Of a stretch of 64,000 bases of DNA, positions 49,014 to 49,537 are shown in pieces. Location of the stretch: NCBI GenBank assembly GCA_964016885.1, contig OZ024744.1:31620001-31684000 (forward strand). Reading direction: 5' to 3'. Each line of letters begins with the position of its first letter. The stretch's first letter is position 1. The position numbers and the translations under genes were made by a program. Under the pieces are notes generated by a model. The model worked only from the letters and a program-made list of their open reading frames with translations, did no database searches and was not told the origin of the DNA. Source of the stretch: Eledone cirrhosa. Its lineage: Eukaryota.

Positions 49014-49537
49014 TCAAGTAAGTATGTTTTGAAACAGTGAGTAGGTTTTGAAATTAGAAAATAGAATAGCTTTCACCGTATTTTTTGACTAAAGGAATTT
49101 TAGCCTGTGTTGGTGTAATGGTAGCACAGTGGTCGCGATAACCAAAGATGTGGGTTCGACTCCCATGTACATCAATACTAATCTTTTTCCATTTATCTGA
49201 GGGTTCTAAACCCCATTATCAGGCTAAAATTCCTTTAGTCAAAAAATACGGTGGAAGCTATTCTATTTTCTAATTTCAGAACCTGCTCACTGTTTCAAAA
49301 CATACTTACTTGCCATTTAAACTCGCTAAGAATGTAACTTCTAATTTGAATGGAAAGAGATGGGTGATGTGTTGGTGTAATGGTAGCACAGTGGTCGCGA
49401 TAACCAAATATGTGGGTTCGACTCCCATGTACATCAATACTCATCTTTTTCCATTTATCTGAGGGTTCTAAACCCCATTATCAGGCTAAAATTCCTTTAG
49501 TAAAAAAAATACGGTGAAAGCTATTCTATTTACTAAT
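49014..49537 (+). mobile_element. (TA)n-inserted mini-element: 262-bp partial tandem plus 5' inverted segment, with two tRNA-like cloverleafs
   Basis: 49015-49107 is the reverse complement of 49221-49311; direct repeat with period 262. Confidence 0.75.
49366..49436 (+). other. tRNA-like cloverleaf with non-canonical anticodon loop; second copy at 49106-49174 lacks the first 2 nt
   Basis: GATGTGT/GTACATC acceptor stem, GTGT-AATGGTA-GCAC D arm, TGGT-CGCGATA-ACCA anticodon arm, GTGGG-TTCGACT-CCCAT T arm; A and B boxes present. Confidence 0.65.

Follow-up and report, generated by a model that had tools for sequence, protein, structure and literature searches.

In a 64,000-nucleotide stretch of Eledone cirrhosa DNA, hereafter the window, we noticed a mini-element which has the architecture of a Penelope-like element (PLE) insertion, carries a tRNA-like cloverleaf in each repeated unit and shows no evident hammerhead. 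From its sequence, it is very probably a PLE-type insertion, and we infer with high confidence that PLE machinery would have inserted it in trans. We hold with moderate confidence that the tRNA acts on RNA, and the tRNA is probably an integral part of a repeated family. The element spans 49015-49538, flanked on either side by (TA)n tracts, and its features are listed below by position in the window.

48973-49014, no strand: left (TA)n target microsatellite, after (AC)n at 48883-48973
49015-49107, minus: inverted 5'-truncated arm, 3' end outward, reverse complement of 49220-49312
49015-49051, minus: 37-bp PLE-type tail, at this end alone, equal to 49276-49312
49106-49107, no strand: inversion junction, TG microhomology of 2 nt common to the arm and tRNA nucleotides 3-4
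49106-49367, plus: first full 262-bp unit, beginning at cloverleaf nucleotide 3
49106-49174, plus: tRNA-like copy 1, lacking G1-A2, with G45 retained (RF00005, 30.6 bits)
49184-49188, plus: T5 run of copy 1 (Pol III terminator type)
49222-49240, plus: 7-bp hairpin; both arms have exact counterparts within loop II of a neighboring hammerhead family (9084-9128), a homology that is suggestive only
49347-49365, plus: purine-rich leader, 5' strand of a 19-bp helix
49366-49436, plus: complete tRNA-like cloverleaf of 71 nt, with A73 and no encoded CCA (RF00005, ARAGORN)
49368-49538, plus: second, partial unit (pseudo-LTR-type repeat), stopping at the short 3' end
49439-49457, plus: trailer, 3' strand of the 19-bp helix, holding the T5 run 49446-49450
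49516-49523, plus: GAAA-GC-TA, similar to a minimal hammerhead's 3' half; the unit has no 5' core to match it, and an 8-mer of this kind is common by chance
49538-49552, no strand: right (TA)n target microsatellite

Along the forward part (49106-49538), the period is 262 and about 1.65 units are present, the 171-nt overlap of the two being 96.5% identical, and the left arm differs from the reverse complement of its source at 3 of 93 positions. The partial tandem with a 5' inverted segment in (TA)n, as described in an earlier reading of the sequence alone (the sequence-only reading), is thereby borne out; both the one-sided tail and the T5 run (49446-49450) had escaped that reading. Both 3' ends point outward and are offset by 37 nt, the forward copy stopping at the equivalent of 49275 and the arm at 49312. 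The insertion is non-coding, has the 37-bp tail at one end only and lies in a (TA)n microsatellite target, with no TSD discernible at the element. The claim that nearby hammerhead elements have the same layout holds for the inverted arm in (TA)n but not for the tandem. Of the 39 stretches, 60 to 1500 nt long, that separate (TA)n runs, 15 carry inverted repeats, some of them perhaps microsatellite noise, and the combination of a partial tandem and an inverted repeat was seen only at 49015-49538. This is a single locus, with no further copy of the 262-bp unit within the 64-kb window. A TATA-like octamer lies at 49314-49321, 45 nt upstream of G1. Two 12-mers flanking the leader region of the unit recur adjacently just downstream, at 49660-49683 (11/12 each), a recurrence which gapped alignment failed to recover.

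The published PLE signature combines a partial tandem and an adjacent inverted 5'-truncated copy with a one-sided tail of 30-40 bp, in a (TA)n target (PMC8557442), and the tail has been linked to two internal RT start sites (PMC11167929). All four structural features of a non-autonomous PLE (pseudo-LTR tandem, inverted copy, one-sided tail, and microsatellite target) are present in the mini-element, and the earlier proposal of mobilization by Penelope-like machinery is well supported by this signature. The same tandem, inverted truncated copy, one-sided tail and microsatellite, without a canonical hammerhead, are described for non-autonomous PLEs (e.g., MRC1 of Chlamydomonas) and for the hammerhead-less Naiad and Chlamys; the hammerhead is absent in Naiad and most Chlamys, and hammerhead-less PLEs thrive (PMC8557442). 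The available sections of that paper describe no tRNA module in non-autonomous PLEs, whereas the mini-element has one. Five motifs of the unit gave 0 matches in the text of its supplement, where line breaks and cut runs may hide motifs; for two 7-mers, 2 of 14 and 2 of 15 matches there were examined. Of the 18 long ORFs listed in the window, 8 were scanned, and no autonomous PLE turned up among them. Four of these 8 encode RTs, with no GIY-YIG match, and were read as LINEs.

The complete cloverleaf matched Rfam RF00005 with 42.7 bits (E value of 1e-5 for the whole window) and the truncated copy (49104-49174) with 30.6 bits, against a threshold of 29, while ARAGORN called the complete copy alone, as tRNA-Ser(cga). 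In the complete cloverleaf, 20 of 21 stem pairs are formed, the mismatch being G27.A43. The A and B boxes match the general consensus and are perfect in both copies. The canonical tertiary-core positions established for tRNAs are occupied as well (U8, G9, A14, A15-U48, G18, G19, A21, G53-C61, U54, U55, C56, and A58), and G45 is present in copy 1. Loop 32-38 is CGCGATA (49396-49402), with G33 and U37, and is non-coding. The cloverleaf with both boxes and the atypical anticodon loop CGCGATA noted earlier for each unit are confirmed by these results. Judged by the features of tRNA-Ser, the anticodon CGA (Ser) sits on a short-arm body with a 4-nt variable loop and A73. The cloverleaf and tertiary core of a functional tRNA gene are present; U33, a purine at position 37 and an anticodon consistent with the body are all missing. 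The cloverleaf thus reads as a tRNA mimic rather than a decoder.

No close parent tRNA was found in the GTDB and phage searches or among the tRNAs aligned or compared by eye. A pattern of D arm plus anticodon arm had 0 GTDB matches, and a looser pattern matched 9 loci, all of them ordinary tRNAs (8 Gly and 1 His). Identity to four aligned prokaryotic or phage tRNAs was 39 to 44 of 71 positions. The phage search gave weak tRNA matches (E values of 0.02 to 0.3, mostly annotated Trp among the best 25 of 61) and no match to the whole 262-bp unit, and the plasmid search gave no match. By eye, the identity to the human tRNAs printed in PMC12217144 was about 40/71 for tRNA-Gln, with the D arm in common, and 36/71 for tRNA-Gly(CCC). 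That the fold is intact despite such divergence suggests selection acting on shape, or else a donor not seen here.

The cloverleaf is closed by a further helix. The leader pairs with the trailer over 19 bp, and the helix extends the acceptor stem, from which a 3-nt bulge (A73 plus two) separates it. The sequence-only reading had seen a stem of about 16 bp between the flanks of the complete copy; this stem is confirmed and is 19 bp long in full, 16 bp of it exact, a length reached by 0 of 100,000 shuffles of the 191-nt spacer. In copy 1, the trailer has one substitution relative to the helix strand. The helix is an RNA-level feature set exactly at the tRNA ends. In both units, a T5 run follows 9 nt past A73 (with an additional T4 in copy 1), and it lies downstream of the tRNA and ahead of the element's 3' ends. 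As minimum-energy structure, a rod was predicted, at -40.6 kcal/mol versus -37.7 for cloverleaf plus helix (a gap of 2.9); in context, the acceptor pairs have probabilities of at most 0.28. Nearest-neighbor models often underrate cloverleafs; the rod may be a real structure, as an alternative fold of the cloverleaf region. For a monomer started at G1, the helix is predicted to form between its two ends, with pair probabilities of 0.78 to 1.0 for 17 of the 19 pairs.

With a relaxed type I descriptor allowing up to 2 core mismatches, 0 hammerheads were found on the sense strand of either circularized unit; the descriptor misses decayed motifs (49744, 51668, and 57986) and is not exhaustive. Rfam returned no ribozymes at E values up to 10, the matches being tRNA and noise. 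Both results agree with the earlier observation of no evident hammerhead. The unit lacks the type I hammerhead found in each unit of a metazoan retrozyme, and the pLTR hammerhead of the canonical PLE clades is likewise missing. An antisense match in the unit was judged spurious, with a loop of 219 nt, and HDV-like, twister and pistol folds, compared by eye with their general consensus, did not fit the unit.

Elsewhere in the window, two complete type I motifs were found, at 1420 (+) and 3430 (-), the latter with a 38-nt stem-loop II. Variant or decayed hammerheads lie at 51668 (+), 54812/55067 and 57746 (-)/57986 (+), of which 57986 (+) is a U3-A8 core variant. All are of PLE type, those at 1420, 3430, 51668 and 57746/57986 lying in inverted fragments embedded in (TA)n. 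A palindromic element at 54717-55162 has the hammerhead 5' core on both arms with an identical altered GAAA position, which argues that a variant or dead ribozyme was copied. Two other palindromes, 2746-3164 (97% over 420 nt) and 50761-50999 (88% over 240 nt), have no complete hammerhead under the descriptor. A family embedded in (TA)n (2410-2584, 8950-9185, 14776-14933, and 49735-49926) has a type I hammerhead whose loop II is long and whose stem III measures 5 bp. Its decayed copy at 49744, about 200 bp to the right of the mini-element, folds with stems of 4/5, 5/5 and 4/5 and is the only one in which the 5' core survives. The family shows two 3' ends about 80 nt apart, a distance exceeding the usual tail.

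The 3' part of the unit resembles loop II plus GAAA of this last family. Alignment to a chosen target of the family scored 38 versus 18.2 ± 3.1 for shuffles, 0 of 500 reaching the score; two further copies were equaled by 8 and 9 of 500 shuffles, and the other 6 of the 9 targets were not significant. The exact hairpin arms occur at 2 sites outside the unit (shuffles, 0/100), and the inverted arms of both families start at the hairpin, that of the mini-element beginning 2 nt before 49222-49240. With copy 2 as the query, the hammerhead family fell outside the top 10. In the window-wide control, the similarity was matched by 27 of 100 and 72 of 100 shuffled queries; the 3'-end similarity is top-ranked but not significant window-wide. 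Of 2,620 gapped words, 26 matched elsewhere, versus 11 to 40 for shuffled units. Because the window-wide controls were not significant, we keep descent of the unit from this pLTR family as a lead, and it is suggestive only.

The forward copy starts at tRNA nucleotide 3. The TG common to the arm places the boundary at +3 to +5, 2 to 4 nt from G1; the breakpoint reported by the sequence-only reading as 2 nt inside the first cloverleaf stands with this widening. The junction is near the RNase P site, not at +1, and reflects a single event. About 5 of the 262 positions would appear equally close to G1 by chance for a feature picked post hoc, and the 2-nt microhomology can account for its position.

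Our best explanation, held tentatively and at somewhat less than even chances as a whole, is a PLE-mobilized non-autonomous element in which the tRNA mimic would be a damped RNase P site setting the RNA 5' end. A partner PLE enzyme (RT plus endonuclease) would cut (TA)n, and each of the cut strands would prime reverse transcription, with 37 nt between the two RNA sites used. Such priming would yield the two outward-facing 3' ends and the tail, and the two cDNAs would join at the 2-nt microhomology. Less firmly, the template may come from a master copy in tandem, by read-through transcription of Pol II type. In it, the cloverleaf would be kept as an RNA shape, and host RNase P would cut at G1 and define the template's 5' end. 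The leader-trailer helix would make this cut inefficient, a brake leaving internal sites uncut; a template could then start at one tRNA yet hold the next one uncut, as in the 1.65 units from nucleotide 3. In favor of this reading are the PLE layout, a fold preserved although no close parent was found, the helix at the tRNA ends, the forward 5' end near G1, the T5 of each unit and the missing hammerhead. A tRNA mimic in a Pol II transcript, with an RNase P site defining an RNA end, is found in MALAT1 mascRNA and NEAT1 menRNA, to whose use of RNase P the proposed working may be likened. Unlike the mini-element, these are immobile modules of host lncRNAs, which define the 3' end upstream of the mimic and have no long paired leader. 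An analogue of the helix brake may be seen in the minimal PLE hammerheads, which cleave weakly (PMC4209133). Against our explanation stand the single locus and single junction, a fully paired leader, which should hinder eukaryotic RNase P, possibly completely, the rod fold being better by 2.9 kcal/mol, and the perfect A and B boxes, which a promoter model would predict. The dispensability of the hammerhead for PLE insertion in vitro (PMC11167929), the success of hammerhead-less PLEs (PMC8557442) and the failure of the 8 scanned ORFs to yield an autonomous PLE count against it too. The sequence-only reading had the tRNA define the RNA end by Pol III initiation or RNase P/Z processing. A role of the tRNA at the RNA end stays plausible, from one junction 2 to 4 nt inside G1 at a microhomology; Pol III initiation of the template is weakened by the T5 run.

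The tRNA might instead be an internal Pol III promoter, making the mini-element a PLE-dependent SINE, like a hammerhead-less Sm-alpha or a PLE counterpart of Helenus. Transcription would start in the leader and occasionally read through T5, the PLE RT would copy the RNA, and a jump across the terminal redundancy would regenerate the tandem. We consider this rather unlikely, even with A and B boxes perfect in both copies and a forward copy that starts at the tRNA, like SINE copies. A Pol III promoter alone needs neither acceptor nor anticodon stem, so a promoter-only role is disfavored, and the full stem pairing and 19-bp helix exceed what a promoter needs. A Pol III template is disfavored because T5 precedes either RT start site: lying upstream of both 3' ends, it would leave a main product of about 100 nt that could not serve as template. 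The junction, moreover, would be at least 15 nt downstream of the expected Pol III start.

Precedents for such a promoter come from two kinds of elements. Schistosoma Sm-alpha and Sj-alpha also have a tRNA-derived segment in a short tandem non-coding retroelement unit, and Sm-alpha, tRNA-Gln-derived and transcribed by Pol III, carries an active hammerhead, its tRNA serving as the promoter (PMC2770079, PMC6765202). Of this sequence of tRNA promoter and then active hammerhead, the mini-element has the tRNA without the hammerhead, and it differs further in the T5 after the tRNA, the closing 19-bp helix, and the PLE inversion with tail. Helenus, Cassandra and Ajax (TRIMp3) are non-autonomous retroelements whose repeated part likewise contains a non-decoding tRNA-like sequence with A and B boxes; in the tRNA-like sequence of the Helenus LTR, isotype and anticodon disagree, and both LTRs of Cassandra contain promoters and terminators for Pol III (PMC10886601). 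These are LTR elements with PBS, PPT and TSDs of 4 to 5 bp, moved by Gypsy/Copia (PMC10886601), whereas the mini-element has PLE geometry: a head-to-tail partial tandem with an inversion was found, not two direct LTRs around an internal region with a TSD of 4 to 5 bp. That a non-autonomous retroelement can carry a tRNA module in its repeated part is already known from Sm-alpha and Helenus.

It is decidedly unlikely that the tRNA is a passenger, i.e., a tRNA gene or pseudogene cassette with its terminator, which a PLE 3'-end fragment picked up or which was copied in trans a single time, without any role in mobilization. The order of leader, tRNA, short trailer and T5 is the plan of an ordinary tRNA gene, with no CCA encoded, and the 64-kb window has no second copy; PLEs can retrotranspose host sequences in trans (PMC8557442), and hammerhead activity is dispensable in vitro (PMC11167929). 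Against a passenger, the searches yielded no close parent tRNA, and the stems would not have survived random decay to about 55 to 60% identity. The 19-bp helix would be left to explain, and the tandem calls for a master that was repeated or circular.

A true retrozyme analogue, the tRNA-based analogue of retrozymes proposed by the sequence-only reading, is very improbable. RNase P would release a 262-nt monomer, whose helix would splint the 3'-OH to the 5'-phosphate for a ligase to close a circle, followed by rolling reverse transcription. The helix predicted between the ends of the G1-started monomer agrees with such splinting. RtcB, however, needs 5'-OH and cyclic phosphate ends, which RNase P and RNase Z do not make, and a closed circle without a 5' end at G1 would give up the junction evidence. 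Metazoan non-LTR retrozymes likewise have non-coding tandem units, of 170 to 400 nt, with PLEs as proposed mobilizers, but are defined by a type I hammerhead and circles closed by RtcB (PMC7229834, PMC7761336). The 262 nt of the unit, here in only 1.65 copies, fall within the range of animal retrozyme circles (PMC7229834). The analogy is weakened by the RtcB chemistry and by hammerhead cleavage being dispensable in vitro.

Other repeats in the window were surveyed. From about 16500 to 46600, related LINEs with APE, RT and zf-RVT domains follow one another head to tail at a spacing of about 6 kb, their copies being 72 to 96% identical; several end in (ATT)n, a SINE-like repeat is interleaved, and the array may have arisen by targeted insertion. 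An RT ORF at 58610-60646 (-), presumably CR1/L2-like by its motifs, has one in-frame stop and is followed by a 136-bp two-copy repeat (58321-58578). A tRNA-like SINE head at 61682-61750 (-) scored 29.3 bits, and a second, older copy lies at 61194-61318; both are unrelated to the mini-element. The window also has a 31-bp minisatellite of 28 copies (7110-7983), a 116-bp tandem of 5 copies (97%, 15886-16458) and a long GGC/GGT triplet tract (48156-48571).

In a window so rich in SINEs and LINEs, the mini-element could be an ordinary SINE with a LINE tail, or else a mitochondrial tRNA insertion or an assembly artifact, complex repeats of PLEs being a known difficulty in assemblies (PMC8557442); together, these are extremely improbable. 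It has the A/B-box tRNA head of a tRNA-derived SINE but, compared with the LINEs and SINEs of the window, neither a LINE-derived 3' end or simple-repeat tail nor a terminator-free body: it is unlike any SINE or LINE there (34/67 to the SINE head at 61682), has no A-rich or simple-repeat tail of its own and carries T5 in both units. Typical animal mitochondrial tRNAs lack an intact D-loop GG and TTCGA, whereas both are intact here, in canonical D and T loops, and 0 of 7 mitochondrial-code ORFs had a Pfam match. The copies differ at several sites, unlike a collapsed or duplicated assembly. These alternatives, of which the sequence-only reading had itself named the SINE and the mitochondrial one as what would overturn it, are largely refuted. 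By the features tested, the mini-element is no retrozyme, Sm-alpha element, Helenus, ordinary SINE or functional tRNA, and it works like a non-autonomous PLE. In the open-access literature, we found no description of a tRNA-bearing hammerhead-less element of PLE geometry; the element may already be catalogued elsewhere, e.g., in Repbase or Dfam.

Hammerhead cleavage is unnecessary for PLE insertion in vitro, where mutants were unimpaired (PMC11167929), and other inverted elements of the window without an intact hammerhead also have no tRNA; a substitute for the hammerhead is therefore not required. A wider scenario, unlikely as a whole, is a Penelope-dependent family derived from a hammerhead pLTR, which would have lost the catalytic core and gained a selected tRNA mimic, with host RNase P, throttled by the helix, replacing end processing by the ribozyme.

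What the hammerhead does in PLEs is an open question, as it is widespread, cleaves poorly, is absent in Naiads and is dispensable in one in vitro system (PMC8557442, PMC4209133, PMC11167929). A PLE-mobilized unit with a tRNA mimic and without a hammerhead is a natural swap experiment. If copies genome-wide start at G1, the replaced function would be definition of the RNA 5' end; if the tRNA is merely a promoter, the SINE/TRIMp3 principle would extend to a third class of retroelements. In addition, the 262-nt unit would be a minimal substrate on which to map recognition by the PLE RT. If the RNase P swap is true, this would be a mobile element trading its own ribozyme for that of its host.
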